Source of the DNA: Antedon mediterranea | Taxonomy: Eukaryota > Animalia > Echinodermata | Length of the DNA: 64,000 bases | Direction of reading: 5' to 3' | Assembly: GCF_964355755.1 (NCBI RefSeq) | Contig: NC_092673.1 | Span: 36,081,648-36,145,647, forward strand | Shown here: piece after piece, positions 19,401 to 64,000 of the stretch | How positions within the stretch are numbered: position 1 is the stretch's first letter | Layout: each line of letters opens with the position of its first letter | The notes under the pieces: generated by a model | Databases searched by the model: none | Seen by the model: only the letters and a program-made list of their open reading frames with translations | Told to the model about the DNA's origin: nothing | Made by a program: the position numbers and the translations under genes

Positions 19401-22400
19401 AAGTCATGCTAAACCAAAGAAAGTAAGTTTAGAATTAACCAAGTCATGCTAAACCAAAGAAAGTAAGTTTAGAATTAACCAAGTCATGCTAAACCAAAGA
19501 AAGTAAGTTTAGAATTAACCAAGTCATGCTAAAGCAAAGAAAGTAAGTTTAGAATTAACCAAGTCATGCTAAACCAAAGAAAGTAAGTTTAGAATTAACC
19601 AAGTCATGCTAAAGCAAAGAAAGTAAGTTTAGAATTAACCAAGTCATGCTAAACCAAAGAAAGTAAGTTTAGAATTAACCAAGTCATGCTAAACCAAAGA
19701 AAGTAAGTTTAGAATTAACCAAGTCATGCTAAACCAAAGAAAGTAAGTTTAGAATTAACCAAGTCATGCTAAACCAAAGAAAGTAAGTTTAGAATTAACC
19801 AAGTCATGCTAAACCAAAGAAAGTAAGTTTAGAATTAACCAAGTCATGCTAAACCAAAGAAAGTAAGTTTAGAATTAACCAAGTCATGCTAAAGCAAAGA
19901 AAGTAAGTTTAGAATTAACCAAGTCATGCTAAACCAAAGAAAGTAAGTTTAGAATTAACCAAGTCATGCTAAACCAAAGAAAGTAAGTTTAGAATTAACC
20001 AAGTCATGCTAAACCAAAGAAAGTAAGTTTAGAATTAACCAAGTCATGCTAAACCAAAGAAAGTAAGTTTAGAATTAACCAAGTCATGCTAAAGCAAAGA
20101 AAGTAAGTTTAGAATTAACCAAGTCATGCTAAACCAAAGAAAGTAAGTTTAGAATTAACCAAGTCATGCTAAACCAAAAAAAGTAAGTTTAGAATTAACC
20201 AAGTAATGCTAAACCAAAGAAAGTAAGTTTAGAATTAACCAAGTCATGCTAAACCAAAGAAAGTAAGTTTAGAATTAACCAAGTCATGCTAAACCAAAGA
20301 AAGTAAGTTTAGAATTAACCAAGTCATGCTAAACCAAAGAAAGTAAGTTTAGAATTAACCAAGTCATGCTAAACCAAAGAAAGTAAGTTTAGAATTAACC
20401 AAGTCATGCTAAACCAAAGAAAGTAAGTTTAGAATTAACCAAGTCATGCTAAACCAAAGAAAGTAAGTTTAGAATTAACCAAGTCATGCTAAACCAAAGA
20501 AAGTAAGTTTAGAATTAACCAAGTCATGCTAAAGCAAAGAAAGTAAGTTTAGAATTAAACAAGTCATGCTAAAGCAAAGAAAGTAAGTTTAGAATTAACC
20601 AAGTCATGCTAAAGCAAAGAAAGTAAGTTTAGAATTAACCAAGTCATGCTAAAGCAAAGAAAGTAAGTTTAGAATTAACCAAGTCATGCTAAAGCAAAGA
20701 AAGTAAGTTTAGAATTAACCAAGTCATGATAAACCAAAAAGTAAGTTTAGAATTAACCAAGTCATGCTAAAGCAAAGAAAGTAAGTTTAGAATTAACCAA
20801 GTCATGCTAAAGCAAAGAAAGTAAGTTTAGAATTAACCAAGTCACGATAAACCAAAAAGTAAGTTTAGAATTAACCAAGTCACGATAAACCAAAAAGTAA
20901 GTTTAGAATTAACCAAGTCATGATAAACCAAAAAGCAAGTTTAAAATTAAACAAGTCATGATAAACCAAAAAGTAAGTTTAGAATTAACCAAGTCACAAT
21001 AAACCAAAAAGTAAGTTTAGAATTAACCAAGTCATGATAAACCAAAAAGTAAGTTTAGAATTAACCAAGTCACGATAAACCAAAAAGTAAGTTTAGAATT
21101 AACCAAGTCACGATAAACCAAAAAGTAGGTTTAGAATTAACCAAGTCACGATAAACCAAAAAGTAAGTTTAGAATTAACCAAGTCACGATAAACCAAAAA
21201 GTAAGTTTAGAATTAACCAAGTCATGATAAACCAAAAAGTAAGTTTAGAATTAACCAAGTCACGATAAACCAAAAAGTAAGTTTAGAATTAACCAAGTCA
21301 TGATAAACCAAAGAAAGTAAGTTTAATGTAATGTAATGTTGTTCGATTTATAAAGCACTTATACAATCAAAAGATTGTCCCAAAGCACTAAGAGAAAAAA
21401 CAGAAAGAAATTACAAAGAAAAAAGATTGGTTTTTAAGAGTGTTTTTAAAACTATGATAAAGGATGCATTTTTGATAGTTTAGGAGTATAGCTTATCCAT
21501 TTCCCCAGATGTGCTTGTTCTGCATCATGTATGATTAATTGGATGTATTGGAAGCATGGAGTAAATAATTACTCCAGGCTTAGAAGTGAAGTAATGAAGG
21601 TTCATCGTTTTCTTATTGTCTCTTTATAGAGGTACTCTATTCGAGAAGTATTGAGTGTTCCATCACGTGCACTGCGAGCTGAAAAGATGCCCAGTGGCGT
21701 TGCATCATGCTTTTCAGCAGCACATAAGAAAGAGTCTATGGAGACACAGTCTATTTACATACCTGTACAATCTGGTGATAAAGAATTTACAATGAGTGAA
21801 CACACAGCACAGAGACTGGCATACCAGCTTACACTTATGCAACAGGTAATTTATATTTACATACTTCATCTCTATTCCAAAATTTCACGTCATGTATTTC
21901 TACCTCGATATTTAGATCTTGTCAATGCAGTTTAAGTTTAAAAAACAATGAATCATTGGAATAGTGTAGCTTGGGCTAGGCATGGGTTAGGTTAGAGTAA
22001 TATTACACTGATATGAGCATATAAGTGCACAAACTCATTATTCTACAGGAATTGTTCCGTAAGGTCCATCCAGTACACTACCTAAACTCTCGCTACAATG
22101 GTATTGGTGTCGGCATGGAAGTGGATGTATCTTTGTCATCTCCTTCCATATCTCGTGCTGAGGTAGAACAAGACTATCCTAACTTGTTTGTTAATACACT
22201 CGGTGATGAGGGACTTGTTCATATACAGTTGGAGCATGCTCGTGAAGTGTCACACTGGGTTGCGGCTGAGGTTGTTACATCAGTTAGTCAAAAGGTAAGC
22301 AAGTGTCACACTGGGTTGCAGCTGAGGTTGTTACATCAGTTAGTCAAAAGGTAAGCAAGTGTCACACTGGGTTGCGGCTGAGGTTGTTACATCAGTTAGT

Positions 22401-25400
22401 CAAAAGGTAAGCAAGTGTCACACTGGGTTGCGGCTGAGGTTGTTACATCAGTTAGTCAAAAGGTAAGCAAGTGTCACACTGGGTTGCGGCTGAGGTTGTT
22501 ACATCAGTTAGTCAAAAGGTAAGCAAGTGTCACACTGGGTTGTGGCTGAGGTTGTTACATCAGTTAGTCAAAAGGTAAGCAAGTGTCACACTGGGTTGCG
22601 GCTGAGGTTGTTACATCAGTTAGTCAAAAGGTAAGCAAGTGTCACACTGGGTTGCGGCTGAGGTTGTTACATCAGTTAGTCAAAAGGTAAGCAAGTGTCA
22701 CACTGGGTTGCGGCTGAGGTTGTTACATCAGTTAGTCAAAAGGTAAGCAAGTGTCACACTGGGTTGCGGCTGAGGTTGTTACATCAGTTAGTCAAAAGGT
22801 AAGCAAGTGTCACACTGGGTTGCGGCTGAGGTTGTTACATCAGTTAGTCAAAAGGTAAGCAAGTGTCACACTGGGTTGCAGCTGAGGTTTTTACATCAGT
22901 TAGTCAAAAGGTAAGCAAGTGTCACACTGGGTTGCGGCTGAGGTTGTTACATCAGTTAGTCAAAAGGTAAGCAAGTGTCACACTGGGTTGCGGCTGAGGT
23001 TGTTACATCAGTTAGTCAAAAGGTAAGCAAGTGTCACACTGGGTTGCAGCTGAGGTTGTTACATCAGTTAGTCAAAAGGTAAGCAAGTGTCACACTGGGT
23101 TGCAGCTGAGGTTGTTACATCAGTTAGTCAAAAGGTAAGCAAGTGTCACACTGGGTTGCGGCTGAGGTTGTTACATCAGTTAGTCAAAAGGTAAGCAAGT
23201 GTCACACTGGGTTGCGGCTGAGGTTGTTACATCAGTTAGTCAAAAGGTAAGCAAGTGTCACACTGGGTTGCAGCTGAGGTTGTTACATCAGTTAGTCAAA
23301 AGGTAAGCAAGTGTCACACTGGGTTGCGGCTGAGGTTGTTACATCAGTTAGTCAAAAGGTAAGCAAGTGTCACACTGGGTTGCGGCTGAGGTTGTTACAT
23401 CAGTTAGTCAAAAGGTAAGCAAGTGTCACACTGGGTTGCAGCTGAGGTTGTTACATCAGTTAGTCAAAAGGTAAGCAAGTGTCACACTGGGTTGCTGCTG
23501 AGGTTGTTACATCAGTTAGTCAAAAGGTAAGCATCACGCTACAAATTTAGTTGTTATGTTTCTATTTGAATACAATCATATTTCAAATGTACATAAAAAC
23601 AGAGGTTTTTTTTGTTTTGAAAGATACCATGTTCAACTGGTGTAAATTAAAATCTTGTTCATTGTGAGATAAAAATATTACATTTTTCGTTATTTTTTCA
23701 AGTACCAAACAGCAATCCTGTGTAAGTTCATAATGATAGCTAGAGAGTGCTATGATATGAGGAATTTAGCCACCTGTATGCAGATTATTGATGCTCTAGA
23801 AAGCCTGATTGTAAGACAAGTACCGGTAGGTTTACATACTTGTGTTGCTTTTTTTTTTTATCAAATAAATTAAACTCATGGAGTCGCTATGTAAACTGCA
23901 CTACTACAAAGTTCTCTCTTCTTAAAGGCCTGGCGGAATCTTCCAAGTAAGATTGGAAGTAGTTTTGAAAAGTTAAAGGCGGCCAAAATCATTTTGAAAG
24001 GTGATGGAGAAAGCCTAATAAAGAATAACATTCATCATGACAAACCTACATTACCATGTTCATTGTTCCTACTGATGCATCTACAAAGTGCTGAGATCGG
24101 TGGATTCACACTTGCTAATGGCATGTATAAGTGGACAAAAATGAAGTAAGAATAATTTATATCTTTTTATCTCATTAAACATATTATTTATCGATTGACT
24201 AAAAACACTAAACTAATAAAAATCATTTTGTAAAAATTGATTGAAAAATTTACTGCATATAAAATGTTGCTCAAGTAGTGCAAAAATTCATTCTACTGTA
24301 TATTGCACAATTGTACACAGTTTGTAAACATATTTTGTTCAGGCTGACTGTCAAATAGGCTACTACTAATTGTACACAATTGTACACAGTTTGTAAACAT
24401 ATTTTGTTCAGGCTGACTGTCAAATAGGCTACTACTAATTGTGCACAATTGTACACAGTTTGTAAACATATTTTGTTCAGGCTGACTGTCAAATAGGCTA
24501 CTACTAATTGTACACAATTGTACACAGTTTGTAAACATATTTTGTTCAGGCTGACTGTCAAATAGGCTACTACTAATTGTGCACAATTGTACACAGTTTG
24601 TAAATATATTTTGTTGAGGCTGACTGTCAAATAGGCTACTACTAATTGTGCACAATTGTACACAGTTTGTAAACATATTTTGTTGAGGCTGACTGTCAAA
24701 TAGGCTACTACTAATTGTGCACAATTGTACACTGTTTGTAAACATATTTTGTTCAGGCTGACTGTCAAATAGGCTACTACTAAGTGTGCACAATTGTACA
24801 CAGTTTGTAAACATATTTTGTTGAGGCTGACTGTCAAATAGGCTACTACTAATTGTGCACAATTGTACACAGTTTGTAAACATATTTTGTTCAGGCTGAC
24901 TGTCAAATAGGCTACTACTAATTGTACACAATTGTACACAGTTTGTAAACATATTTTGTTGAGGCTGACTGTCAAATAGGCTACTACTAATTGTGCACAA
25001 TTGTACACAGTTTGTAAACATATTTTGTTCAGGCTGACTGTCAAATAGGCTACTACTAATTGTACACAATTGTACACAGTTTGTAAACATATTTTGTTCA
25101 GGCTGACTGTCAAATAGGCTACTACTAATTAACTATTTTAACTTTTATTATGCAAATTTTCACATTTTCAAGTAAATATTTCAGATACACTTAGTGTAGT
25201 TTATGCAACATTTTCTTACTTTTTCAGATCTATTGCAAAACTTGTCGACCAGATTAGAGTGTTCCAGAATCATACTTTTACCTTTGAATCTGACGCTGAA
25301 CTTCAGGAGTTGCTACAGAAACGCATCCTTCAAATGAATGACCATGACATACACTCATTGGCTGCCCAGCATTCGGCTAATTTTCACCAGCTTGCTTCAG

Positions 25401-27055: not shown

Positions 27056-28603
27056 ATGGCGGACTCGGTAATAAAAACGATCATTTTAATGCTACTGATA
27101 ACTTTACTCAGTGTTGGAAATGGCCGACATACACATAGACGGAATAAAACTAGAGGCGACCCCAAGAAGAAGAACGTATTAATAATGTTTGTTGACGATG
27201 GTGGATTTGAAAGCCCAGTGTACAATAATACAGTCTGCAAAACTCCAAACTTGTCCGCATTTGCTAAGCGTAGCGTTGTATTACGTAGAGCCTATACATC
27301 TGTGAGCAGTTGTTCACCAAGTCGCTCTGCTTTACTCACTGGACTACCACAGCATCAGAACGGTATGTACGGATTACATCACTCATTCCATCATTTTGAA
27401 TCATTTGAAGGAGTCAAAAGTATCCCACTGATTCTAAAGGACCATGGTGTTCGGACGGGCATAATTGGTAAGAAGCATATAGGGCCTGATGACGTTTATA
27501 AATTCGATTACGAAAGAACAGACGAACATTACAGTATGTTACAAGTTGCTAGGAACATCACTAACATGAAAATTCTTGTGAATGAATTTCTATCCATGGA
27601 TGATCGTCCGTTTTTCCTTTATATTGCTTTCAAAGATGTTCACAGATGCGATGCAGGTATTGAAAAATATGGACAATTTTGTGAACGATTTGGAAATGGT
27701 AGCCAAGAGACGGGAACTATTCCAGATTGGAAACCAGCATATTACGACCCATTTGACGTCATTGTGCCATACTTTCTACCCGACACATTGGCAACCAGAC
27801 AAGAAATTTCAGCACAGTATACGTCGGTCAGTAGAATGGACCAAGGGGTCGGACTTTTCCTAAACGAACTAAAATCGTTGGGGTTCCTTGATAACACGTT
27901 GGTTATCTACACTGCAGACAATGGTATACCTTTCCCTAACGCAAAAACAAATCTGTACGAAAGCGGCATGGGTGAACCAATGATTATATCATCTCCTATG
28001 CACACCGAACGTTGGGGTGAGATTAGTGATGCTATGGCCAGTACTATTGATATTGTACCGACAATACTAGATTGGTTTGGAGTTGACTACCCATCATACC
28101 TCCTTAATGGTGTCACTGTGAATCTGAGTGGCAAATCTTTACTTCCAATATTGACTTCTGAACCAACAACGGGAGAGAAGTTTGATGAAGTGTTTTCCAG
28201 TCATGATCTACACGAAATAACAATGTACTACCCAATGAGAGTTGTACGCAATCGTCAGTACAGACTAATACATAACCTGAACCACGCCACGTCATATCCG
28301 ATCGCACTCGACATTTTCATGTCCCCAACATTCCAAGACACGTTAAACCGATCCCATGAAGGAAAGCCAACCAACTGGTTCAAGTCTTTACACCAGTATT
28401 ACTATCGACCAGAGTGGGAACTGTACGATGTCAACAATGATCCACAAGAATTGACCAACTTGATAGATAACTCGACACTGGCTGACATGGTGAAGAACCT
28501 GAAGACCAGCTTACAGGCATGGCTAAAAGAAACCAATGATCCGTGGCAATGCCTACCTAATGGCGTGTTAGTTGGGTCTGAATGTTGGCCTCTTTATAAC
28601 TGA
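27056..28603 (+). CDS. SGSH: N-sulphoglucosamine sulphohydrolase (sulfamidase)-like, single coding exon
   Basis: 515-aa ORF with hydrophobic signal peptide, NVLIMFVDDGGFES, formylglycine motif SSCSPSRSALLTGLPQHQNGMYGLH, RTGIIGKKH, YTADNGIPFP, HEITMYYPMR, YYYRPEWELYD and TNDPW. Probable 5'-UTR exon ending at 26441 (AAG|gtatgt). Confidence 0.95.
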   Translation: MADSVIKTIILMLLITLLSVGNGRHTHRRNKTRGDPKKKNVLIMFVDDGGFESPVYNNTVCKTPNLSAFAKRSVVLRRAYTSVSSCSPSRSALLTGLPQHQNGMYGLHHSFHHFESFEGVKSIPLILKDHGVRTGIIGKKHIGPDDVYKFDYERTDEHYSMLQVARNITNMKILVNEFLSMDDRPFFLYIAFKDVHRCDAGIEKYGQFCERFGNGSQETGTIPDWKPAYYDPFDVIVPYFLPDTLATRQEISAQYTSVSRMDQGVGLFLNELKSLGFLDNTLVIYTADNGIPFPNAKTNLYESGMGEPMIISSPMHTERWGEISDAMASTIDIVPTILDWFGVDYPSYLLNGVTVNLSGKSLLPILTSEPTTGEKFDEVFSSHDLHEITMYYPMRVVRNRQYRLIHNLNHATSYPIALDIFMSPTFQDTLNRSHEGKPTNWFKSLHQYYYRPEWELYDVNNDPQELTNLIDNSTLADMVKNLKTSLQAWLKETNDPWQCLPNGVLVGSECWPLYN

Positions 28604-41414: not shown

Positions 41415-43440
41415 CTATGCTTTACTCAAGTCCTTATTTAGTGTAAATAGTTCTTCTCCTTGCTTTATAGCGTAATCAATGCCTTCACATATTTCCTGCC
41501 ATTTCTTTGGCACAAACTCCAATCCATAATAAGCTCCACCAATAGCACCGGCCATTGTTGCTATTGTATCTGTATCTCCATCCATTGTAATGGCGTAAAG
41601 TATGGTACGCACAAGGCCATTATCTGTTGGAATACTTTCAATGTGTTTAACTGATCGCAAGAAACAGAAGATTGCTGTAACTACAGATTGATGTGCTGCT
41701 ATGCCATTGCCTGTAAAAATATGAAATTAAACTTTACATATTTCTCATTCTATACACCATCAACAGTGTATGACATCCTTTCCCTTTAGAATATTACATA
41801 CCAAGTTGTTCAACCACTTTTTATTTTAAACTTTACATATTTCTCATTCTATACACCATAAACAGTGTATGACATCCTTTAGAATATTACATACCAAGTT
41901 GTTCAACCACCTCTTTATTTTCTACATTATTCCTTTTCAAAAATTCTTTTACAATTTTCAACTTGTTTGCATATACTGCTTCCTCAGAAACACGCTCATC
42001 AAATCTATTTTAAAAACAATAGAAAATAATGCAATCAGTAATTTTAGACATAAAGATAATATTTTATTTAATAATTTATTTTACTGAAGTAGAACAGAAG
42101 TAATAATTATACCTTGATTTTGTAGCTTCGCTGACTTCTTCTGCTCCTCCTTCAACATGTTTCATTATATCAATTAATCCATCAACAAGTTTATCTGTAT
42201 CGATATCCGTTCCATTGTCAATGTGAAGCACATTGTGGATTGCACAGCATAGTAACAATGCACCATTATATCCTAAGCTGTTAGAATGTGTTAAACGGGC
42301 AGAGTCAACAGCAACCTATGTAGTAGATCATTTGTTAAAATTATTGAACCTTTTTTGCCACTTGACAGTATCGCCATTTTAAATATGAAATGTGGAATCA
42401 TGTTTAGTTTGAATTCTTGTTGATCAAAGCATATTGATCGAAACATCGAGAAACTCAACAGTTATTTTCAGAACTAATACACGTGGTGTACCGCAAACTT
42501 TATATCAACAATTTTGAAAATCCACAAAGTTGGTCATTGAACCTACCTGTTTCATAGTTTCAAAGTTATTGTAGAAAGCAAGAGCAACTGGTGCTACTCT
42601 CATTGCTCCACCATTCCCATAAGATCCACTCCCATTAAATTGTGTTGTTGCTGGATGATAAATATTGGTTAATGCAGGGTCCGCTAATCTTTGAAATATA
42701 TCTGTTACATTTGCTCCATACCCTCTCCAGTTCTCCTTTACGTATTCATCATTGAATCTGCAATTTTGATTAGGAAATTCAAAATGATATATGCAGCACA
42801 GAAATTGAATGGAACAATAAATATGAAACATAATAATTATAATGTTGAATAGATTGTGCTACCTTTTAGCCATATCCCGTGCATTAAACTTGCATGTACT
42901 CTCTATGAGGGACTGAGCAACTGACCTGGCCATAGCTGTATCATCTGTAAACTTTAGTTTCTCTGTAAATGCAGAAAAAACACACTCACAAATGCTGGAC
43001 ACATAGATATATCAGTACCATAATGCAGGAGTGCAAGTATACAATTTATTAGGTTCAATTTAATGGTTTATTATTATAGAAGTGATTGTTGTTGTTCACT
43101 CACAGTATTATTTACTTATTCTATTATGTTCATTTTATATGTATGAACCCTAACCCTAACCCTAACCCACTGAAGTGGATTTTCTATTTTATGTATGAAC
43201 TGCCCACTGAAGTGGATTTTCTATTTTTACAATTCAACTTAAAGATGAGAAGGATGCATGAATCATTTGGAACGTACTAGAATCAAAACTCAACTCCTCT
43301 TCAAACTTGATAACCTTGTTGACACTTTCAACACCACATACTTCAAACGGAGCACCAAGGCAGTCGCCAGCAACTGCAGCTGCCAAACAACCCTGAAAGC
43401 GAGCCTTTAACTTGTGTCCCCATGCTGCAGTTGCAGACAT
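41415..43440 (-). CDS. ADPRS: ADP-ribosylhydrolase ARH3 (ADPRHL2), 6 coding exons
   Basis: Minus-strand exons 43440-43278, 42962-42863, 42757-42547, 42315-42113, 42004-41895, 41710-41415. ARFQGCLAAAVAGDCLGAPFE, FTDDTAMARS, RGYGANV, QFNGSGSYGNGGAMRVAP, SARLTHSNSLGYNGA, LGNGIAAHQSV, DGDTDTIATMAGAIGGAYYG. An acceptor at 43505 implies an upstream exon, so the start could extend. Confidence 0.93.
41728..41910 (-). repeat. Two-copy duplication (about 90 bp) spanning an ADPRS exon end and 5' splice site
   Basis: Sense-strand GTGGTTGAACAACTTG|gtatgtaatattctaaagg occurs at the true donor (41894) and again at 41801 inside the same 184-nt intron. Confidence 0.85.
43146..43168. repeat. Short interstitial telomere-like (TAACCC)n tract
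   Basis: aaccctaaccctaaccctaaccc, about 4 units of the TTAGGG complement, in an ADPRS intron. Confidence 0.7.
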
Positions 43441-43899
43441 CCCAAACCACCTCACCAAATTCAGCTTAAAAAATTTCTTTAAAAAACAAAGAAGATGCAA
43501 CAAACTGTTAATTCAAACAAACAATAGATTTACTACTACACACACTACAGCAAATATACTTATGACATGCAGCCTGAGTTATGATATTATATAATAACAA
43601 AAACTGACAGAATATATCACCAGGCTAGGGCCTATAATTAGGTTAGTACTACACTAGTACTGTCTGTAGTACTACTAGATAATAAGTAGTAGAGTTCAGT
43701 AGGTAGTACTTAGTAGTGGTGGTAGTAGGCCTTACTAGCTAGGCCACCTCTCTAGCTAGGCTAATCCAAATTTTCATTAGAATTCAAATTTTCTAAAATA
43801 TTTTTTAGAATATTCCTCCAATTAAATATTCCTCTCTTGGTTGGTAGAAAAATGATTAGTGTTTAAATATGCCTAGTTGTCCTACTATAAGTGTATTTG

Positions 43900-45031
43900 T
43901 GAAAGATATCAGAATGAGCAATCCGGGGTTTTCCCTTGCAACAGTAATTTTGTTCCGTGCGGTAGGGCGCCGTATACGTCGGGATGATTTGTGACGGTCA
44001 CTAGTTTGATCCCGAGTTTGATAAAAAAGTGCGATATGCCCAAATATGGTCGTGATATGACATCATCATGTCCCTATATGGCACATAACATTTTTTGTCA
44101 CGTAATTGATAGCGTAGACAGAGCTATAGCCTGGTGGGCCACCGGTAGGGTTCTCATGATTATCAAGTACATGCTAACATCATGTTTTAAATGCTATTTG
44201 GATCATGATTTTTTAAATCGTTCAATATGCAATTATTTAGTAAAAAAATGACAAATAGACAGTTCTTCGCATCAACTGCCTGGCGTATTGTTGTTAGGAT
44301 AGTTCATTAATATTGCAATAGTCAACTTTTTTCTAATAGAAAAAATAAATATTACAGGTAGTTGAATTTGACATTGTATAACATGTATTTTATAGTAATT
44401 TATATCATAAATATTACTTGACCGGGCGTAGATTAATATGCGGCAATGGCAAAGAATCTGTACTTTTTATTGTTTTAAACATTGTATTTCAAACTGCACG
44501 TGTATTAACAAAGAATTTCTATTTTTATATAAATTAGACCAATGAAAGATTAATTGAATACTAAGCCATGCTTGGTAACATGGATGATTTTTGCTGTAAA
44601 CATTTCTTTGTGAACTAATTTTATTTTAGTTATTTTATTTTATTCAATCGAAACCAACAGCAATAATTACCGCCGCTAACAGGTTGATACAAACAAAGCC
44701 AGGACTCAGCACCTTGGTTGGTCCTAACATGGTGGTAAAATAATTTTTCTATTTTCAATTTTTTAATGCACACTAGTATGTTATTAGATATTTTTCATGA
44801 GATGTTATATAATTGCAAAATATACTATCATTCTATTTAAATCAATGACTGTTAAGCACCTTGGTTGGTACATCCGCTAGGGCGGGCAGGCACCCATGCT
44901 CTAAAAAGTACACAGAGAGACTTTCCAATGCAAAAATCGCGTGACGTGTGTACAGTGAGTGGTGGCAGCAGATTAGCAGCAGCAGCACCCATGTGTTAAT
45001 ACACGTTGTGTGAACACTTTTTTCCTTCAAA
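43900..45031. promoter_or_regulatory. Probable head-to-head promoter region shared by ADPRS and MAK16
   Basis: Divergent genes with start codons about 1.6 kb apart; local CpG/GC enrichment at about 43920-44000 and 44870-44990, including cgcgtgacgtg at about 44938. Transcription start sites not determined. Confidence 0.5.
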
Positions 45032-48000
45032 ATGCAACATGACGATGTAAGTATTTCTTTATTTGGGATCTTCATTTAAACATTGATTTCAATATTAGTT
45101 TAATTTCTAATTTCTTATAATATCACTATCTAGGCATCTAGAATTTAAATTCTAGGCTAGGCTAGGCCTAGTCCTCGGAGGACTAGAAGTCCGTCCTTCC
45201 TTGTGTAGGATTAGGAACTAGGGAGCCTGACCCTGGGTCGATTCGTCCCAGGAACAATTCAACCCGGCAATATTATTGTATGTTATTAGCCTATAGTAGT
45301 AGGTAAATTAATTTTATACACAACAACTTCAAACACTTTCTCTTGACTTAGATTTATTTGCATTTTAAATCACAAATTGCATTTATGATTTAATTAAAAA
45401 CAAAGAAAAGTGGCTAACCACCGAAATGAGCCAGTTTCATTAAAACTTTACCAAAACTGTATCCAATTTAGTTTTAGATTGTCTTTTTCTGGTTCAGTTA
45501 GCCAGACAATAATTATGTTGTATGAATAAAAATGAAATGAATTCATTATTTTTTTTTAAAATAATTACTGTTGTCTTGTCACAGGTCATATGGAGTATTA
45601 TTAACACCACATTCTGCTCATACAAAGTGAATTCGAAAACAACACAGTTTTGCCGTAATGAGTATAACTTAACAGGTTTATGTAACCGATCAGCCTGCCC
45701 TCTTGCTAACAGTCAATATGCAACAATCCGTGAAGAAAACGGTTAGTTTAGTAGATTATACACTTTCAGTTTTGCCGTAATGAGTATAACTTAACAGGTT
45801 TATGTAACCGATCAGCCTGCCCTCTTGCTAACAGTCAATATGCAACAATCCGTGAAGAAAACGGTTAGTTTAGTAGATTATACACTTTCAGTTTTGCCGT
45901 AATGAGTATAACTTAACAGGTTTATGTAATCGATCAGCCTGCCCTGTTGCTAACAGTCAATATGCAACAATCCGTGAAGAAAACGGTTAGTTTAGTAGAT
46001 TATACACTTTCAGTTTTGCCGTAATGAGTATAACTTAACAGGTTTATGTAACCGATCAGCCTGCCCTCTTGCTAACAGTCAATATGCAACAATCCGTGAA
46101 GAAAACGGTTAGTTTAGTAGATTATACACTTTCAGTTTTGCCGTAATGAGTATAACTTAACAGGTTTATGTAATCGATCAGCCTGCCCTGTTGCTAACAG
46201 TCAATATGCAACAATCCGTGAAGAAAACGGTTAGTTTAGTAGATTATACACTTTCAGTTTTGCCGTAATGAGTATAACTTAACAGGTTTATGTAACCGAT
46301 CAGCCTGCCCTCTTGCTAACAGTCAATATGCAACAATCCGTGAAGAAAACGGTTAGTTTAGTAGATTATACACTTTCAGTTTTGCTGTAATGAGTATAAC
46401 TTAACAGGTTTATGTAATCGATCAGCCTGCCCTGTTGCTAACAGTCAATATGCAACAATCCGTGAAGAAAACGGTTAGTTTAGTAGATTATACACTTTCG
46501 TAGTTACAATGTAAAGAGCAAGAAGTATTTAGGTGCTTTAATAATAATACTGTAATAATGACATTATATGTTTTATGTTGATAGGTGTTTGACATTATAT
46601 GGATTATATGTTTTATGTTGATAGGTGTTTGACATTATATGGATTATATGTTTTATGTTGATAGGTGTTTGACATTATATGGATTATATGTTTTATGTTG
46701 ATAGGTGTTTGACATTATATGCATTATATGTTTTATGTTGATAGGTGTTTGACATTATATGGATTATATGTTTTATGTTGATAGGTGTTTGACATTATAT
46801 GCATTATATGTTTTATGTTGATAGGTGTTTGACATTATATGGATTATATGTTTTATGTTGATAGGTGTTTGACATTATATGGATTATATGTTTTATGTTG
46901 ATAGGTGTTTGACATTATATGGATTATATGTTTTATGTTGATAGGTGTTTGACATTATATGGATTATATGTTTTATGTTGATAGGTGTTTGACATTATAT
47001 GGATTATATGTTTTATGTTGATAGGTGTTTGACATTATATGGATTATATGTTTTATGTTGATAGGTGTTTGACATTATATGCATTATATGTTTTATGTTG
47101 ATAGGTGTTTGACATTATATGGATTATATGTTTTATGTTGATAGGTGTTTGACATTATATGGATTATATGTTTTATGTTGATAGGTGTTTGACATTATAT
47201 GGATTATATGTTTTATGTTGATAGGTGTTTGACATTATATGGATTATATGTTTTATGTTGATAGGTGTTTGACATTATATGGATTATATGTTTTATGTTG
47301 ATAGGTGTTTGACATTATATGGATTATATGTTTTATGTTGATAGGTGTTTGACATTATATGGATTATATGTTTTATGTTGATAGGTGTTTGACATTATAT
47401 GGATTATATGTTTTATGTTGATAGGTGTTTGACATTATATGGATTATATGTTTTATGTTGATATGTGTTTGACATTATATGGATTATATGTTTTATGTTG
47501 ATAGGTGTTTGACATTATATGGATTATATGTTTTATGTTGATAGGTGTTTGACATTATATGGATTATATGTTTTATGTTGATAGGTGTTTGACATTATAT
47601 GGATTATATGTTTTATGTTGATAGGTGTTTGACATTATATGGATTATATGTTTTATGTTGATAGGTGTTTGACATTATATGGATTATATGTTTTATGTTG
47701 ATAGGTGTTTGACATTATATGGATTATATGTTTTATGTTGATATGTGTTTGACATTATATGGATTATATGTTTTATGTTGATAGGTGTTTGACATTATAT
47801 GGATTATATGTTTTATGTTGATAGGTGTTTGACATTATATGGATTATATGTTTTATGTTGATAGGTGTTTGACATTATATGCATTATATGTTTTATGTTG
47901 ATAGGTGTTTGACATTATATGGATTATATGTTTTATGTTGATAGGTGTTTGACATTATATGGATTATATGTTTTATGTTGATAGGTGTTTGACATTATAT

Positions 48001-51000
48001 GCATTATATGTTTTATGTTGATAGGTGTTTGACATTATATGGATTATATGTTTTATGTTGATAGGTGTTTGACATTATATGGATTATATGTTTTATGTTG
48101 ATAGGTGTTTGACATTATATGGATTATATGTTTTATGTTGATAGGTGTTTGACATTATATGGATTATATGTTTTATGTTGATAGGTGTTTGACATTATAT
48201 GGATTATATGTTTTATGTTGATAGGTGTTTGACATTATATGGATTATATGTTTTATGTTGATAGGTGTTTGACATTATATGCATTATATGTTTTATGTTG
48301 ATAGGTGTTTGACATTATATGGATTATATGTTTTATGTTGATAGGTGTTTGACATTATATGGATTATATGTTTTATGTTGATAGGTGTTTGACATTATAT
48401 GGATTATATGTTTTATGTTGATAGGTGTTTGACATTATATGGATTATATGTTTTATGTTGATAGGTGTTTGACATTATATGGATTATATGTTTTATGTTG
48501 ATAGGTGTTTGACATTATATGGATTATATGTTTTATGTTGATAGGTGTTTGACATTATATGGATTATATGTTTTATGTTGATAGGTGTTTGACATTATAT
48601 GGATTATATGTTTTATGTTGATAGGTGTTTGACATTATATGGATTATATGTTTTATGTTGATATGTGTTTGACATTATATGGATTATATGTTTTATGTTG
48701 ATAGGTGTTTGACATTATATGGATTATATGTTTTATGTTGATAGGTGTTTGACATTATATGGATTATATGTTTTATGTTGATAGGTGTTTGACATTATAT
48801 GGATTATATGTTTTATGTTGATAGGTGTTTGACATTATATGGATTATATGTTTTATGTTGATAGGTGTTTGACATTATATGGATTATATGTTTTATGTTG
48901 ATAGGTGTTTGACATTATATGGATTATATGTTTTATGTTGATAGGTGTTTGACATTATATGGATTATATGTTTTATGTTGATAGGTGTTTGACATTATAT
49001 GGATTATATGTTTTATGTTGATAGGTGTTTGACATTATATGGATTATATGTTTTATGTTGATATGTGTTTGACATTATATGGATTATATGTTTTATGTTG
49101 ATAGGTGTTTGACATTATATGGATTATATGTTTTATGTTGATAGGTGTTTGACATTATATGGATTATATGTTTTATGTTGATAGGTGTTTGACATTATAT
49201 GGATTATATGTTTTATGTTGATATGTGTTTGACATTATAATGACATTATATGTTTTATGTTGATAGGTGTTTGACATTATATGGATTATATGTTTTATGT
49301 TGATAGGTGTTTGACATTATATGGATTATATGTTTTATGTTGATAGGTGTTTGACATTATATGGATTATATGTTTTATGTTGATAGGTGTTTGACATTAT
49401 ATGGATTATATGTTTTATGTTGATAGGTGTTTGACATTATATGGATTATATGTTTTATGTTGATAGGTGTTTGACATTATATGGATTATATGTTTTATGT
49501 TGATAGGTGTTTGACATTATATGGATTATATGTTTTATGTTGATAGGTGTTTGACATTATATGGATTATATGTTTTATGTTGATAGGTGTTTGACATATG
49601 GATTATATGTTTTATGTTGATAGGTGTTTGACATTATATGGATTATATGTTTTATGTTGATAGGTGTTTGACATTATATGGATTATATGTTTTATGTTGA
49701 TAGGTGTTTGACATTATATGGATTATATGTTTTATGTTGATAGGTGTTTGACATTATATGGATTATATGTTTTATGTTGATAGGTGTTTGACATTATATG
49801 CATTATATGTTTTATGTTGATAGGTGTTTGACATTATATGGATTATATGTTTTATGTTGATAGGTGTTTGACATTATATGGATTATATGTTTTATGTTGA
49901 TAGGTGTTTGACATTATATGGATTATATGTTTTATGTTGATAGGTGTTTGACATTATATGGATTATATGTTTTATGTTGATAGGTGTTTGACATTATATG
50001 GATTATATGTTTTATGTTGATAGGTGTTTGACATTATATGGATTATATGTTTTATGTTGATAGGTGTTTGACATTATATGCATTATATGTTTTATGTTGA
50101 TAGGTGTTTGACATTATATGGATTATATGTTTTATGTTGATAGGTGTTTGACATTATATGCATTATATGTTTTATGTTGATAGGTGTTTGACATTATATG
50201 GATTATATGTTTTATGTTGATAGGTGTTTGACATTATATGGATTATATGTTTTATGTTGATAGGTGTTTGACATTATATGGATTATATGTTTTATGTTGA
50301 TAGGTGTTTGACATTATATGGATTATATGTTTTATGTTGATAGGTGTTTGACATTATATGGATTATATGTTTTATGTTGATAGGTGTTTGACATTATATG
50401 GATTATATGTTTTATGTTGATAGGTGTTTGACATTATATGGATTATATGTTTTATGTTGATAGGTGTTTGACATTATATGGATTATATGTTTTATGTTGA
50501 TAGGTGTTTGACATTATATGCATTATATGTTTTATGTTGATAGGTGTTTGACATTATATGCATTATATGTTTTATGTTGATAGGTGTTTGACATTATATG
50601 GATTATATGTTTTATGTTGATAGGTGTTTGACATTATATGGATTATATGTTTTATGTTGATAGGTGTTTGACATTATATGGATTATATGTTTTATGTTGA
50701 TAGGTGTTTGACATTATATGGATTATATGTTTTATGTTGATATGTGTTTGACATTATATGGATTATATGTTTTATGTTGATAGGTGTTTGACATTATATG
50801 GATTATATGTTTTATGTTGATAGGTGTTTGACATTATATGGATTATATGTTTTATGTTGATAGGTGTTTGACATTATATGGATTATATGTTTTATGTTGA
50901 TAGGTGTTTGACATTATATGCATTATATGTTTTATGTTGATAGGTGTTTGCTTTTTGTACATGAAAACAATAGAGAGAGCAGCATTTCCATCAAAGTTAT

Positions 51001-52202
51001 GGGAAAAGGTTAAGTTATCAAAGAATTATGAGAAGGCCTTACAACAAATAGATGATCAGCTACGATACTGGCCAAATTTCATCAAACACAAGTGTAAACA
51101 GCGTTTTACGAAAATCACACAATACTTGATACGTATGAGAAAACTTGTTTTAAAAAGACAGTAAGTTAAAATTGGATCAAACTGAACAGAAAATGATGTG
51201 CAAATTTCAATGGTATAATAGCAAAAAATTAGAATTAGTAACAACATGTAATAATATATATGATAAATAACATTTAGGTTGTCTATAAAGCTAAATATAG
51301 TCAGCCCAATTAAAACCAAGCATGTACTGTAGTCCATATCATAATATAATACATTTTGTCGAGTTCACATGATTTCAGATATTTTGATATTTTTACAGGA
51401 GAAAACTTGTTCCAATAAGCCGTAAAGTAGAAAGACGAGAGGAACGTAGGGAACAAAAGGCTTTGGTTGCAGCACAGCTTGATAATGCTATTGAGAAAGA
51501 GCTCTTGGAACGACTTAAAAAAGGAACTGTGAGTATTATTGTTCCGTGTGTAGGCCTGCTTTTTATATTTCACATAGAACACCATGTATATGTGTGACTG
51601 GTCTTTTTTTGCAGTATGGCGATATATACAATTTCCCAGCACATGCATTTGATAAGGCGTTAGATGCTCAGGAAGAAGATGAAAGTGAAGTGGAAGGAGA
51701 ACAAGAAGAAGAATATGAGGAAGAGGTAATGTCATTTAATCGCCTTTCTTGGATCTTTACACCTGAATATATGTTTGATAGTGTTAAGAAATTAGAAAAG
51801 TTGAGTTGGATTAACATTGATAAAAATGCTTGTTACTTTAGGAACCTGAAGTAGAATATGTGGCAGAAGGTGACTTTGAAGAAAGTGATTTAAGTGACTT
51901 TGAGGTGAGTTGGAACACATGATATAATAATAATCATTTTATTATTAATTTGTTATGTAAGTAGATGCAGATGCATTTGGTATTTAAAAGTATATTCAAT
52001 TTGTGCATAAATCAATATTTGTATTTTTTTGCAGGAGATGGACAAACTCCACAACATAAGCGATGATAATTCAAGTAGTTCAGATGAAGAGCAAAAGAAA
52101 AGTGTGAAAAAAATGTTCAAAAAGAAAAGACCACGAGTTGAAATAGAATATGAAAAAGAACTTGATCAGCCATCAACATCAAAACTAACTCTAAAATCAT
52201 GA
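45032..52202 (+). CDS. MAK16: MAK16 60S ribosome biogenesis factor, 7 coding exons
   Basis: Exons 45032-45046, 45585-45741, 50944-51160, 51399-51528, 51615-51725, 51842-51904, 52035-52202. MQHDD|[45 protein letters not shown]|[65 protein letters not shown]|YGDIYNFP, acidic tail, RPRVEIEYE. Confidence 0.96.
45645..46499 (+). repeat. 122-bp tandem array, 7 copies, duplicating the 3' part of MAK16 exon 2 and its donor
   Basis: Donor gttagt at 45742 + 122n up to 46474; copies 2-7 alternate between two variants. Confidence 0.95.
46560..50950 (+). repeat. 40-bp tandem array, about 110 copies, spanning the MAK16 exon 3 acceptor
   Basis: Unit gacattatatggattatatgttttatgttgatag|gtgttt; the last copy is the real acceptor (AG at 50942-50943). 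Confidence 0.95.
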
Positions 52203-52703
52203 ACATTTATTAAATACTGTAGTTGATATTAGTTAATACAATGGCATCGATTGTGAGTATTTTGAGTGTTCCAACTTCCATGTTCATAAACCAATCTGTA
52301 TTGTGAAAATCAATGTAATCTAAGTCTAATTTCTTTAGTCCAGACCCTTTTCTTTTGTTGAAATTACTCCCATTTGACCATGAATCTTAATTTTTCAATA
52401 AAATAATTTAAGTACAGCATTACACATGTTGCATACCATAATTAAAGTTAGCAGGATGGGGACGAAAGCAAAGATGAATTGTTCATATAATTGTAGCTTT
52501 TCTCGTAAAGATCTTATCAAGGCTGATTGACAAGTCTGACTTATCTTTTTTGATATTAAAAAACAAAGTAGTGTACTGTATTTGCTACCGCCCTCTACAA
52601 TTAAATAAGTGAACCATCGCTCGTACGACGCGTCTCTCGAGAGCTGATGAGAGGAGAGAGAGAGCTGAGAGAGAGAGGGGGATGTTGATGAACAGTCAAG
52701 AAT

Positions 52704-55640
52704 ATGGCGGAGGCGAATACATTGAGTGATCAGTCTCCGACAAAATCAACGGTTGCTGGTGTAGTAAAGAGAGAAGGTAGAATTTATTATTTATGGTTAA
52801 TTATTTAACAATTAAGGATACTGTAGCTCAGTTTTATTCGCCAAGGCTTAATCTGGCTATTCATTTTTAAAGATACCAGCTAGGCCAAGGCTATCGCGCC
52901 TAGACTAGTAGGAGGGCTAGGCTAGTTAGGCCAAGGTGCCTAGCTAGCGGGGAGTATGATCGGTTGAGCCGCCGGTAATTTCTATGAAACGCCCAGTGCG
53001 TCTTTTAGGACATTTCGCGTAGTGATTAGAGTGGTTAGTAGTGTCCTAGTAGTACATAAGTTCATGCTTTAGGTTTGTTGTGTCATGAAAATAAATTACA
53101 TGTTTATGTCATTTTTGGCTAAAAACTATCATTTTTGGTGATGTTTTAGACCTTATATTTTGGAATCTACATACAAGTCAGATTTGTAATTGTAATATTT
53201 AATAATATATACTAAAATCATGATATATAAACTTTTGAATATAGAACTTCTATTGAATAGAAACAAGCACCGGCGTTTCATAGAAAATAACGTTTTTATG
53301 GCGGCGGCTCAACTTGGCCTAATCTGGGCCTAGCCTAGTAGGCCTTGCTAGTATTTTTTGTTGTTTAAAAAGACCCACCACATTCACCGGGGAAATCCCG
53401 CTTTTTACCCTCGGGCCTGGCTAGCTACCTACTTGCTAAGTAGGCTAGAGTAATGGTGGTACCGTAGTATTGAGTATGATCCATGATGGGTCATGATGGT
53501 ATGCCTAGCCTAGTAGGCCTAGTCTAGTGTAGTATTAGGCCTAGTGTAGTAGGCTCAGCCTAGGCCAGGTAGAAATTTAAAGCTCTAGGACAGGTTAGAC
53601 TTTAATAATTAGTGTTCAGTCAGTGTAGAGTAGAGTAAGCGGCTACAATACATACAGCTGCCCATCTATATATATTTTTAATTATGATATTGGATAACTA
53701 ACACCCAAACAACAATTATTGGCTCTTCCTCTACTAAACCTCTCCTAGATGCTACTCTTAATTTTTTATTATTTTAAGACAATACGCCATTTTCACAAAA
53801 AGAATGACATCTTTGATCGATGACATACAATGCTTAGTCTTAATATTAGTAAAAGAGATAAATATTTTGGCACATATGGCGTTTCATACGTATACTACTT
53901 GATTTTAGATACTCCGTTTGGGAAAACACGTACAAATCACATGGTTTGACACCAAGAATCCTTGGTGCATACGATTATCCAGTTGACTAGTTTCAGCCAC
54001 ATGCCATTGGCTACTCACTCGTATGCAGTTTTAATATTCATATTTCAGAATTTCAAAGACTCAACAACTAAGACGATGCGCATGCGCTATGTTACGTTTA
54101 GACAGTATGTGTTGGGTACATTGATGAACGTTTCTAAAGGCTAGAAATGATTGATCGGATTTTTCCCAAGAACATGAAAACTCGTCTAAATATGATAGGC
54201 TGCCTTCTCCGCAAATCAAACATTGAATGGATCATTTATTATGTGGAGATAATTTGATTTAATTCCCACCCAGCCCAGACCCTGTCCCTGTGTGGTAGGT
54301 GTGTAGCTCTGTTGTGTACCGCTGGTGGTATGTACCTTATTGGCTTTTTATTTGGCAGGTCATACGTACCAGTTGAGTAGGCCTACGAAGGAAGCCTAGG
54401 CCAGGACTAAACAATTAGGCCTAATAAACAAAACAACTTGGCAACACGATTTTATATTTTAACAGTTGTTCAGTCTCGATCGTACATTCAGCACTGTACG
54501 TACTCAATCTTTTTCATTTTGAAACAAAATGATCATTGGTTGATTCGAAATCCATACATACCGCCCGCCCCATATAGCCAAATACGGTAACGATAACTTA
54601 GGTCTTTCTTATCGGATGTTTGCAGTCTGCAAATCGATTTCTATATGTGTTTCACAAGTCAGTATTTTCAGACAAAAATCGAAATAAAAACAAATAAATA
54701 AAATAATTTGTTTTTACTTAAGAACATTTTAAATACAGTAATTTGTTTTCTCATAAGACCCTCTGTACAGGAATTTTTAAATTAACATGGTGTCCTGAAA
54801 TTTCCTGAAAACGCTGTTGGTTACGCTTCTCGATTGAATATGTAGTGCTAACTACCAGCAGCAGCTATTAATAATGGTCGTACCACGGTATCTGAAACAG
54901 GGAAGCGAGGCTGTACTTCTTGATTTTGCACAAATCTGAGTCCAATTTTATTATTTATTATTATTTTGCCATATTTATAAATATAAATTGTTTTTATAAA
55001 ACAGACATATATATGTATATATACCGTTAAAATGTTATTTTTATTAAATAATCCAATGTTAGGTAAGAAAGGTCGACTACGAACTACGTCCAAGGTTCGC
55101 TTTCCAGAAGATGTGCACGAACCAGATATTTTAGTATCCCGAGAGAATAATGGTGCAATCGATATAAATGTGGGTTTTTTACTAAGTCAACACAAGTATG
55201 AAGCTAGTTTTACTATAGAAGATTCTATTAAAGATGATATTGAAGTGCCTACAGATCAACAAATATTGCTCAGAGTTCGTAATATCTATACATCTCAAAA
55301 TGGTATGCACTTGTTTTATTTATTTCCCTTTATGTGTTTTGTTTTTAATTAGTTTTCTGTCTACTTCATGTCTAGTTCAGATGGTCAGTATGAACCGGAC
55401 ATGGTTGCCAACATGATTGCTCACTACTTTGCGTATTTTATCCGTTTATTTTATATTGACACTGATAGATTCGTCTATTTGTTATTTAAATATTTTTATA
55501 TAGTTTATTATATATCATTGTTGTTACTTTGGGAGTACGGAACCTGAACTCTTGTTATAGTGATTAGGTTCACTTTTAGGTTCCTACCTACTCCCTTAGT
55601 TTCTGTGTTTTTGTTTGTTTGTAACTGGTTTTTGGCAATA

Positions 55641-59710: not shown

Positions 59711-61830
59711 AGAAATTCATTCTTTTTATAACAGAACTTGTTTTGTATAATCAGACAGTTTATATACCAATTATTATTATTATTAGTGATAATACTTTTA
59801 ATAGGCTTTCTCAATACATACTGTATTAAGCAAAAAGCTAAACATCTACTGTCGAAAATGAGGGTGGTTGGTAGTAGACAATACAATATTTTAACTTCAA
59901 TTAAGAAATACAGTAGTTGGTATATAAACTGTTTTTGGCGAGAAACAATCGCATTTAATTTAACTTATTTAATTTTAGATATTATTTGTAAATTTGTATT
60001 TTTTATACTGTGCCAAATTGTGTAGGATAAATAGAGTAGTAATTACTGTAATACATTGATAAGCATATTTAAAACTTTATTGAAACATAAGTTCATGTAT
60101 TTTATTATAGTTACTGCAGCTTGTGGTTAGGGGTGTTTTATGCTGTCATTCTAGCAAGTGTTTCAAGGTGCAATTAACTCATTGCTAACTAGTCAAATTA
60201 GTATTATTACTGAGATAATGTACAGGGGCGGGCTATTCCATTTTGCATATATGTATAATTGAAATAATACTATTAAATAACTATCAATATATATATATAA
60301 ACAAATCAGGCAAAGAACACTAATTCTAAACTGCCCGGTAATATACTGAAATTTAATTAATTAATTTGAAACGATAAAGATGAGGAAATCTGTGAGAATG
60401 AGAAAAAGTCGTATATATATATATATATAGTATAATAAAAAAAAATTTGATTAAAATTTGATAATGGTAGAATAAAATGAATTATATTGCAGAGGATGCC
60501 TTTGCACCATCATTCCTTTAAATCCGCCATTGATATAGTACAGTGTATTTAGGGCTACGTTGGTGATGAATACAAACATGAGATGTAATTTGAATTCAAT
60601 TTTTCCTCCATGTATTTTATTCATTAATACAAATTTATTGTGAAATAAAACTATCACAATGAAAACGAAGACAAATCGTGTTTATATAATTAAAGCTATT
60701 TTGGTTTGTTTATTTTATTTTCACATGAACCAACTGCAAATACTTTTTACTAAATGTGAAACCCATGTTTTTTAAAATAATCAAATCTCATTTTATTATG
60801 CTTAGGTAGTGAGGCTGTATTTGAGGGCTGGAAAAAATCCTGCCAGAAAGACCCTTTGGAACTAGCAAGCACTAGCGCTGCAAAATACAGTACCTGTTGT
60901 TGTGAAAGAGTATTATCATCATTTACTACTTGGAAAAATGCCAAGCACATTTCATTTTTGTTTGCAAGTGCCAGCCTTCTGTCTTTCGTCAAGTATTTCA
61001 CTCAGTTTTTATAAACGCTTGATTTCCAACTGCTCTTCTGTTGTCATTGAGGGATGTTATTTCAAAACATGTACATCATCACTGCATAGACTTTATTGCA
61101 ATCATACCAATTATTTCATGTCCTGTTATTCACTACCCGATTTATTCAACAACAAAATAAACAAATGTGTTATACTGTTTTTTATTTTATTTTTTGTCTT
61201 ATTACATAAAAAGTGGAATGAATTTAACAATACAGTACTTCCCCAGACTTCAGTTTTGAATTTCTGAAGGTAAATATGTTGTATAAAATTGATTATATTT
61301 GGTAAAGCAGTGCTGGATTTGGTATAGCAATTATCTTACTTGTTGTACTAGCCAGATTTCAGCGTAATGATTTTATAAAAACACGCTTGTAATGTACAAT
61401 GGTATTGCTATAATATTGTTACTTTTCAGCTAAACCATAAAAATACTGTACATGATTTTAACATCCAAATGAAAACAATTATTTTCAGCAAATTGTGAAA
61501 TTTAGAATTCTGCAACCCATTAATTTTTATGTTTTGAAATTATAATAGTAAAATATTTTTTAATATTGAAAATTCATTTTTTAGCAAAATATTATTAAAT
61601 AGGCAACTAACTATACTGAACTCAAAATAACATGGTCTGCATTTTGTTGACAGATTAAAACTTTTTTCAAATTGTTCATTATCTACATTTGCTGTATCTT
61701 GACGATAACAGTAGTAAGTCATGAATTGGTCATCACAATTTCTCAATGATAGTTTTTGTTGCTTGAAGACTTGTAAAAAGTAGTTGAAGATGCATATTCT
61801 AGAAGACTGAATTAAAAACTCCCAGCAGAT

Positions 61831-62031
61831 TTAGAGAATGCCACATTTGCCCTTATCCTTGTAATGATTTTCACCGCTTGGTGGGATTCCAGTCAAAAGC
61901 ATATCCTTATCACGATGTTCCACACAGTATTCACGTAGACTGGTTGCAGCTTGTGATACAAGCAAGCGTTTGATTGCCGCCTCACGTTTTAGTTGTTCGA
62001 CAACTTTCTTCATATTCTGGACACCAGTCAT
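61831..62031 (-). CDS. GNG: Heterotrimeric G-protein gamma subunit (copy A), intronless CDS
   Basis: 66 aa: MKKVVEQLKREAAIKRLLVSQAATSLREYC...DMLLTGIP...KCGIL, a GGL fold with a CaaX (CGIL). Acceptor aaacag|ccATG at 62034; probable 5'-UTR exon with donor near 62375. Confidence 0.92.
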   Translation of the reverse strand: MTGVQNMKKVVEQLKREAAIKRLLVSQAATSLREYCVEHRDKDMLLTGIPPSGENHYKDKGKCGIL

Positions 62032-63538: not shown

Positions 63539-63742
63539 TTATATTAAACAACATGGTCTGCTACTCATTCTGTAAGGAGAAACACGTCCTGGGTTGTCAG
63601 CTGTTGGACCTCCTGTCAGTAAAAAGTCATTTTTTCCAAGTGAAATGCAGTATTGTTTGAGATCAAGTGCTGCTTCTGATACTGGGATTCGAACAATTGA
63701 TGCCTCTCTTTTTAACTGTTTGATGTCCTGTCTTAAGCGCAT
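63539..63742 (-). CDS. GNG: Divergent G-protein gamma subunit (copy B)
   Basis: MRLRQDIKQLKREASIVRIPVSEAALDLKQYC...DFLLTG...SPYRMSSRPCCLI*: a GGL pattern with a C-terminal CaaX. Acceptor-like tttcttcataccacag at 63771, so the N-terminus may extend from an exon outside the window. Confidence 0.82.
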   Translation of the reverse strand: MRLRQDIKQLKREASIVRIPVSEAALDLKQYCISLGKNDFLLTGGPTADNPGRVSPYRMSSRPCCLI

Positions 63743-64000
63743 TGACTCTGTTTTGATTCTATACTGAACTCTGTGGTATGAAGAAATAAACTTTATGATA
63801 GATACTAATTTAACCTTGTTCACTCAACTGAAATGTAATGCATTCGATCAGTAATAAAAATAATAATAATAATCAATAATATTAATGAAAGTACAGAGTA
63901 GCCTTGTCTACCAAACGTAACGTCACATTTTATTTCCATTTGTCTTATCTTTCGTCATTTTCGTCATTACTTCTGTTCACTATAACAAAGTGTTATACAT

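Follow-up and report, generated by a model that had tools for sequence, protein, structure and literature searches.

Minisatellites whose units straddle a splice site are known as mirages, and a 2002 paper on Adh is said to be their founding description. In lancelets they occur in Adh3, troponin C, the globins BflGb6 and BflGb9, and PGBD5, with Adh3 units of 10-72 bp and globin units of 150-160 bp in 3-6 copies, and by RT-PCR the latter leave splicing undisturbed, as described in the sections drawn on here (PMC3087553, PMC3902484). Could such arrays give rise to new exons? The Fig. 7 legend of PMC3087553 suggests that one copy of a mirage may turn into an exon, with the remainder forming a new intron; in those sections of the two lancelet papers the model is proposed, not demonstrated. 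A second group is human. In intron 7 of F7, a 37-bp VNTR repeats the donor and the most upstream copy is used, a mechanism tested by mutation, while lamin B2 (100 bp x 10-15) and PDGF (81 bp x 16-18) use the first donor only, according to the part of PMC1557585 consulted. Finally, intron gain by tandem duplication, either crossing a boundary or at an AG/GT proto-splice site, is described, in the portions cited, for potato RdRp (PMC4974935) and Drosophila (PMC2891723), and ITRs are described as drivers of human gene changes (PMC2812944).

The case examined here lies in the ribosome-assembly gene MAK16 of the feather star Antedon mediterranea. The window, meaning the whole stretch of 64,000 nucleotides that was analysed (contig NC_092673.1, positions 36,081,648 to 36,145,647), contains a seven-exon MAK16 model that is open for 286 amino acids and identical, letter for letter, to the public protein P0001, "protein MAK16 homolog B-like [Antedon mediterranea]," the 1 member of its protein cluster. 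The model shares 189 of 190 N-terminal residues with an Anneissia japonica protein, is matched by the human MAK16 chain at 7e-117, and contains an L28e-like N-terminal domain, a Mak16 C-terminal region (Pfam PF01778 and PF04874, 7.6e-40 and 2.6e-31), and a four-cysteine motif. MAK16 stands head to head with an ADP-ribosylhydrolase-like gene, which we take to be ARH3, with about 1.6 kb between the starts (43440-45030), and a gene that is presumably C20orf27-like begins about 500 bp downstream (52200-52705). The parts of MAK16, all on the plus strand, are as follows.

45032..45046, plus strand: coding exon 1 (MQHDD), where gene model and public protein agree
45585..45741, plus strand: exon 2, 157 nt, ending in phase 1 (gene model; Pfam Ribosomal_L28e, 1e-16)
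45742..50943, plus strand: intron 2, 5,202 nt (gene model; spliced contigs)
50944..51160, plus strand: exon 3, its first 7 nt inside the last 40-bp unit
51399..51528, plus strand: exon 4 (gene model)
51615..51725, plus strand: exon 5 (gene model)
51842..51904, plus strand: exon 6 (gene model)
52035..52202, plus strand: exon 7, to the stop codon (gene model)
45645..46498, plus strand: donor-spanning 122-bp x 7 minisatellite (mirage), arranged A(AB)(AB)(AB') (TRF; X1 cycle contig)
46563..50950, plus strand: acceptor-spanning 40-bp x 110 minisatellite (TRF)

Exon 2 codes for the motif CX11CX9CX4CP, with cysteines C16, C28, C38, and C43. The motif is defined as in PMC12646323, which reports, in the part consulted, that these four cysteines bind a [4Fe-4S] cluster in yeast Mak16.

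The first array starts within exon 2. TRF reports a period of 122, 7.0 copies, 98% match, and a score of 1661 at 45645-46499, which is seven whole units plus 1 base. Each unit joins the last 97 nt of exon 2, which in unit 1 are the exon's own, to the opening 25 nt of intron 2; it leaves out the exon's acceptor and initial 60 nt. The repeat is thus head to tail with a unit of minisatellite size, its terminal unit spans an exon-intron boundary that spliced contigs and the public protein establish as genuine, and the donor is intact and identical in 7/7 units (ACG/GTTAGT, the slash marking the boundary). The array belongs to the known mirage class. Only three positions of the unit vary, 10, 42, and 58; those at 42 and 58 distinguish type A (copies 1, 2, 4, and 6) from type B (copies 3, 5, and 7), and copy 7 has one extra C>T (B'). 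The order A, A, B, A, B, A, B' is a 244-bp higher-order pattern, which the first-pass annotation of this DNA had also recognized. One variant is synonymous and two change an amino acid (L>V, R>C), and with two of the three doing so, the copy variants have not been purified. Tandem, mutually exclusive duplicated exons were considered as a description and rejected, because the unit lacks the exon 2 acceptor and two-thirds of the variants are nonsynonymous.

Is the array real? The read evidence consists of Logan contigs, in which rare forms are dropped, for 4 of 15 listed runs, compared on 44900-45766, a stretch with one unit. In X1, a DNA run of organism A, a 152-nt circular contig equals one unit plus 30 nt, and the unique flank contig stops 30 nt into the unit, with its break at 45674. 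Because the cycle and the flank contig ending inside the unit are both there, the array is no assembly artefact, and the tandem copies described in the first-pass annotation are borne out by TRF and by the read-derived contigs of X1, although X1 may be the source sample and so no independent individual. The ratio of cycle to flank depth is 3.9, against about 5.4 predicted for seven copies on both haplotypes, and this shortfall is what would speak for a misassembly or an inflated copy number; contig depth, though, is no copy number, and with a cycle in read-derived contigs and ordered copy differences at three sites, an artefact is exceedingly improbable.

The array also appears young. In X10, from organism B, one contig of 3,059 nt crosses the whole unit in a single pass at a depth of 52.4, versus 57.4 next door, and extends 2,754 letters beyond the stretch. 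Organism B, which shows 7 differences from the window in 207 nt, would therefore lack the 122-bp array, and the 40-bp array is probably missing as well. Within the unit B differs at 45662, 45698, 45707, and 45731, and all seven copies have the window's letter at these four sites, so that either the duplication followed the split or the copies have been homogenized. As judged from one relative and one run, the array likely arose after the split from B. At both diagnostic sites B has the type-A letters; by the same single relative, type B is likely derived and confined to the intronic copies. For other individuals (X5-X8) and organism C (X13 and X15), shares of 0.58-0.67 are a hint only, as the 40-bp array alone predicts 0.58 and both arrays 0.69.

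The duplication also places exonic sequence between donors. The six unit junctions read TACACTTTCAG and so create ...TTTCAG sites; copies 2-7 each read AG, 94 nt, and GT, spaced by 28-nt GT..AG stretches. A further AG, TTAACAG/GTTTAT, lies 28 nt beyond the junction site inside each unit. Two sets of potential cassettes result.

45770..46473, plus strand: six pseudo-exons of 94 nt that follow the junction-made CAG, starting at 45770 + 122k (sequence; acceptor scoring)
45798..46473, plus strand: six 66-nt in-frame (phase 1-1) pseudo-exons behind TTAACAG/GT, starts at 45798 + 122k (sequence; scoring)

The first-pass annotation was correct that tandem duplication made six AG-exon-GT cassettes and that inclusion of a 94-nt copy is a frameshift; translation stops after 60 aa. 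It also judged the 28-nt spacers probably too short to splice, and this agrees with a reference set of 39 GT-AG introns from seven genes of the window, hand-annotated by open frame and incomplete, in which the shortest intron is 86 nt and the median 238. Spacers of 28 and 56 nt fall below that minimum, while 150 nt, the distance from donor 1 to the junction acceptor of copy 3, and 178 nt are possible lengths. Animal introns shorter than about 30 nt are reported only in two parasitic lineages, in the part of PMC13644364 consulted.

How good are the junction-made acceptors? A weight matrix was built from the acceptors of the 39 reference introns. Real sites have leave-one-out medians of 7.6, 7.4, and 6.3 bits at 14, 20, and 25 nt, and the junction site scores 4.7, 1.5, and 1.3. 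Real acceptors scoring below it number 10, 5, and 5 of 39, and intronic decoy AGs scoring as high number 53, 128, and 134 of 491. Its AG-free zone is 13 nt, as short as none of the 39 real ones, and no TRAY branch motif is present at -45 to -15, where 26/39 real acceptors have one. The junction-made acceptor is weak, and the "good acceptor" of the first-pass annotation does not stand. In the true exon the same site scores only -1.2; the duplication did raise this, to 1.5 at the junction. Among 9,652 simulated breakpoint pairs, 9-22% make an equally good junction AG, and in 69-89% an AG of that quality remains somewhere between donors. Exonic AGs come to lie between two donors in every duplication of this kind, so the pseudo-exons are best seen as a by-product.

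What do transcripts show? Two contigs, X9 and X14, are taken as RNA because a spliced junction is present in them. The X9 contig (organism A, depth 121.5) exits at 45743 into GTTTGCTTTTTGTAC..., with exon 3 from 50946, and the X14 contig (depth 1243.5), from organism B, which likely lacks the array, makes the same exit at 45743 into exon 3, GTTTGCTTTTTGTAC. X9 is the only spliced contig from the array-bearing organism, and the presence of the array in its individual is presumed. Both contigs fit only the last of 104 acceptors, as the upstream 40-mer acceptors would read on differently. In X9, type A at both diagnostic sites, the main contig joins the end of exon 2 to exon 3; among abundant forms, normal splicing is kept. 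The contig is unbroken at the donor, with no branch for read-through or for pseudo-exon splicing, again among abundant forms. By the logic of a k=31 graph, forms that use donors 2-7 or a pseudo-exon after exon 2 would be absent or rare, and that logic is borne out by the break of the X1 contig at 45674. Because the X9 contig begins within the duplicated sequence, at 45656, it does not tie the donor to copy 1; copies 2, 4, and 6 are identical. This start implies a branch at 45655, the second base of a CpG that is mutated at its first base in copy 7. No joint appears in any of the 4 runs (Logan contigs, 44900-45766), nor do the contigs contain a new intron or exon: there is no go-back joint and one annotated protein. 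The "exon and intron genesis in progress" of the first-pass annotation is not supported, as the spliced contigs show only the end of exon 2 joined to exon 3; its account of the duplication, the frameshift, and the short spacers survives, and the arrangement itself is a class already described, the mirages. The contigs show no exon birth in MAK16 intron 2, though they would miss low-level inclusion. Two further products were considered. Splicing from exon 1 to the junction acceptor would be in frame (265 aa, minus 21 aa with C16) and was rejected because the X9 start at 45656 misses the predicted merge point; a circular RNA from a 94-nt copy would have no open rolling frame in the sequence.

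In steady-state RNA, accurate site choice and decay of errors look alike. Frequent leaky use might be made of donors 2-7, of the junction acceptors, or of the 103 40-mer acceptors upstream of the real one, the errors masked by decay, and copy number might thereby tune the dose of MAK16. Decoy and real sites, donors as well as acceptors, share the same core sequence, the frameshifted products all stop at 58-60 aa, early in a seven-exon gene, and the human genes 6-16 and CBS make use of two pseudo-donors, as reported in the part of PMC1557585 drawn on here. Yet the same part of that paper states that F7 chooses the first donor even where downstream donors give no premature stop. The X9 contig is without branch or joint, the junction acceptor is poor, and an essential gene that tolerates 110 + 7 copies suggests a low cost, all of which makes dose tuning by leaky splicing decidedly unlikely.

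The TTAACAG site, a stronger and in-frame cryptic acceptor inside the unit, was omitted from the first-pass annotation. It scores 6.6-8.9 bits over four window sizes, like the median real acceptor (18-28 of 39 lower); exonic AGs reach its level in 1-6 of 717-769 cases, and a TAAT lies at -20. Splicing from donor 1 to TTAACAG of copy 3 or later, across an intron of at least 178 nt, would add a 66-nt cassette of 22 aa starting GLCNRSACP(L/V), and the product, open for 308 aa with the frame kept in all six copies, would escape nonsense-mediated decay (NMD). Is a cassette exon being born here? The AG-free zone is 11 nt, whereas all 39 real ones measure at least 14; pyrimidines are few, the 5/12 equalling the lowest real value (3/39 real); and the site has no YTRAY. 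With the cassette included, an essential knot-fold domain would carry two of its four Fe-S ligand cysteines, C38 and C43, twice over, which is likely harmful. No use of it is seen in the spliced contigs, X9 being unbroken at the donor, and the public annotation has one isoform in its cluster. An in-frame exon in use is accordingly very improbable. The regenerated donor at the CAG/GTTTAT proto-site was also tried as a candidate and rejected as weak, with 2/39 real donors lower.

The other end of the intron carries an array of its own, likewise omitted from the first-pass annotation. Among its 110 copies, 104 retain TAG/GTGT, the last being the real acceptor, and 6 have AG>AT; splicing to an upstream 40-mer acceptor leads to a stop after 59 aa. 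Together the arrays account for 98.8% of intron 2 (5,202 nt), and between them lies one further stretch.

46474..46584, plus strand: GT..AG stretch of 111 nt bounded by donor 7 and the first of the 40-mer acceptors (compared with window intron lengths)

Judging from its sequence, this stretch is likely the ancestral-size intron 2, intact midway in the present one. Might it be removed first, by intron definition, with the rest of intron 2 following stepwise from this or other inner pairs? The inner pair has the ancestral sequence and a typical length (13/39 window introns are of 86-131 nt), and by sequence logic the upstream donors and downstream acceptors would still be usable after an inner cut. 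The contigs contain no intermediate, though, the end product is the same as that of direct splicing, and cotranscriptional capture of donor 1 is simpler, so that there is little probability of a stepwise route.

The explanation that we consider probable is a young, near-neutral minisatellite whose copies leave with the intron, the end of exon 2 being joined to exon 3. It would have begun with one 122-bp tandem duplication with 1 base of homology at the junction, as the one base seen there suggests. Two substitutions may then have arisen in the distal copy, and either slippage or unequal exchange may have spread the 244-bp A+B pair. The 40-bp array could have grown in the same way from the intron's other end, so that the intron would have expanded from about 111 nt to 5.2 kb. 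Why would this be tolerated? The array would be tolerated because, relative to the genuine site, its copies lie toward the intron: (i) exon 2 retains a unique acceptor and may encounter donor 1 first, by exon definition or 5'-to-3' scanning, as in human F7; (ii) exon 3 may be defined at the last acceptor only; (iii) slips in splicing may be cleared by nonsense-mediated decay.

MAK16 is not the only gene in the window with repeats of this kind.

18124-21325: donor-spanning array, 40 bp x 80, with 79 intact donors, in a RasGEF-domain gene
22245-23533: donor-spanning array, 56 bp x 23, with 23 donors, in the same RasGEF-domain gene
41727-41921, minus strand: 99-bp two-copy repeat comprising the end of an exon with its donor, about 90% identical, in the ADP-ribosylhydrolase-like gene

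The donors repeated in the two RasGEF-gene arrays are strong. The gene, presumably KNDC1-like, has a RasGEF_N match of 2.5e-06, just under Pfam's cutoff; the exon next to the 56-bp array, delimited only by open frame and GT/AG, gave no match in a homolog search. The 99-bp duplication fills most of a 184-nt intron. A 69-bp x 12 array (24304-25130), with an acceptor-like TTCAG in 8/12 copies and TTGAG in 4, was rejected as a mirage because it ends 97 nt before the real acceptor. Reducing 42 TRF rows to 19 nonoverlapping arrays with a period of at least 20 (short periods, overlaps, and G/C-rich 17-bp arrays were dropped), 5 of the 19 span an annotated boundary versus 1.69 expected (P = 0.021; one window). 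Without the focal array the count is 4/18 versus 1.49 (P = 0.055), and for arrays of at least seven copies it is 3/9 versus 0.65 (P = 0.022). With one window, several subsets, and incomplete annotation, the excess is suggestive only. A bolder reading, in which splice junctions are a preferred source of minisatellites in feather stars and intron 2 has, since the split, become a test of 7 donors against 104 acceptors with the 66-nt exon or the stepwise route in use, is unlikely.

Several other features of the window deserve mention. C-rich and G-rich 16-17-bp arrays in opposite orientation flank a 22-bp array in one 3-kb intron (12770-15635), which with its long inverted ends looks like nested foldback or MITE-type elements. 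An intronless sulfatase/SGSH gene of 494 aa with a Pfam match (27119-28603) sits among intron-rich neighbors and is a possible retrocopy. Two neighboring small genes on the minus strand (61660-62020 and 63545-63785) presumably encode G-protein gamma subunits, which they resemble, and other window genes we label AS3MT and mitoferrin by sequence resemblance.

How, then, does this locus compare with the systems described above? Like the lancelet mirages, its units are long, span boundaries at donors and acceptors, keep their signals, and accompany normal mRNA. Unlike them, it is found in an echinoderm, its 7 donors face 104 acceptors across one intron, and exonic AGs create an AG-exon-GT cassette in each donor unit; variation among haplotypes in length was shown there, whereas for MAK16 the depth ratio of 3.9 is a weak hint of it, beside the single copy in relative B. 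Supplementary mirage alignments of PMC3087553 may include similar AG-exon-GT cassettes. With the F7-type VNTRs it shares a first unit that spans the donor and is followed by identical pseudo-donors, but the F7 unit holds 4 exonic bases versus 97 in MAK16, and no facing acceptor array is described in the part of PMC1557585 consulted. As in the cases of intron gain, a boundary-crossing duplication provides two sites, one inherited and one cryptic, and the MAK16 unit even has a CAG/GT proto-site; there, however, a new intron or exon is reported as gained, and the MAK16 transcript contigs contain none. Among the open-access papers listed in literature searches, no echinoderm mirage and no arrays at both ends of one intron appeared.

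Boundary-spanning arrays such as these mislead gene callers. Beyond that, MAK16 intron 2 is a ready-made experiment, in which identical donors and acceptors face each other across an intron of a highly conserved gene, with copies tagged by the A/B variants and an unexpanded allele likely in a close relative. Were the in-frame exon or the stepwise removal to prove true, exon birth could be observed directly, along the lines of the model put forward for lancelet mirages.
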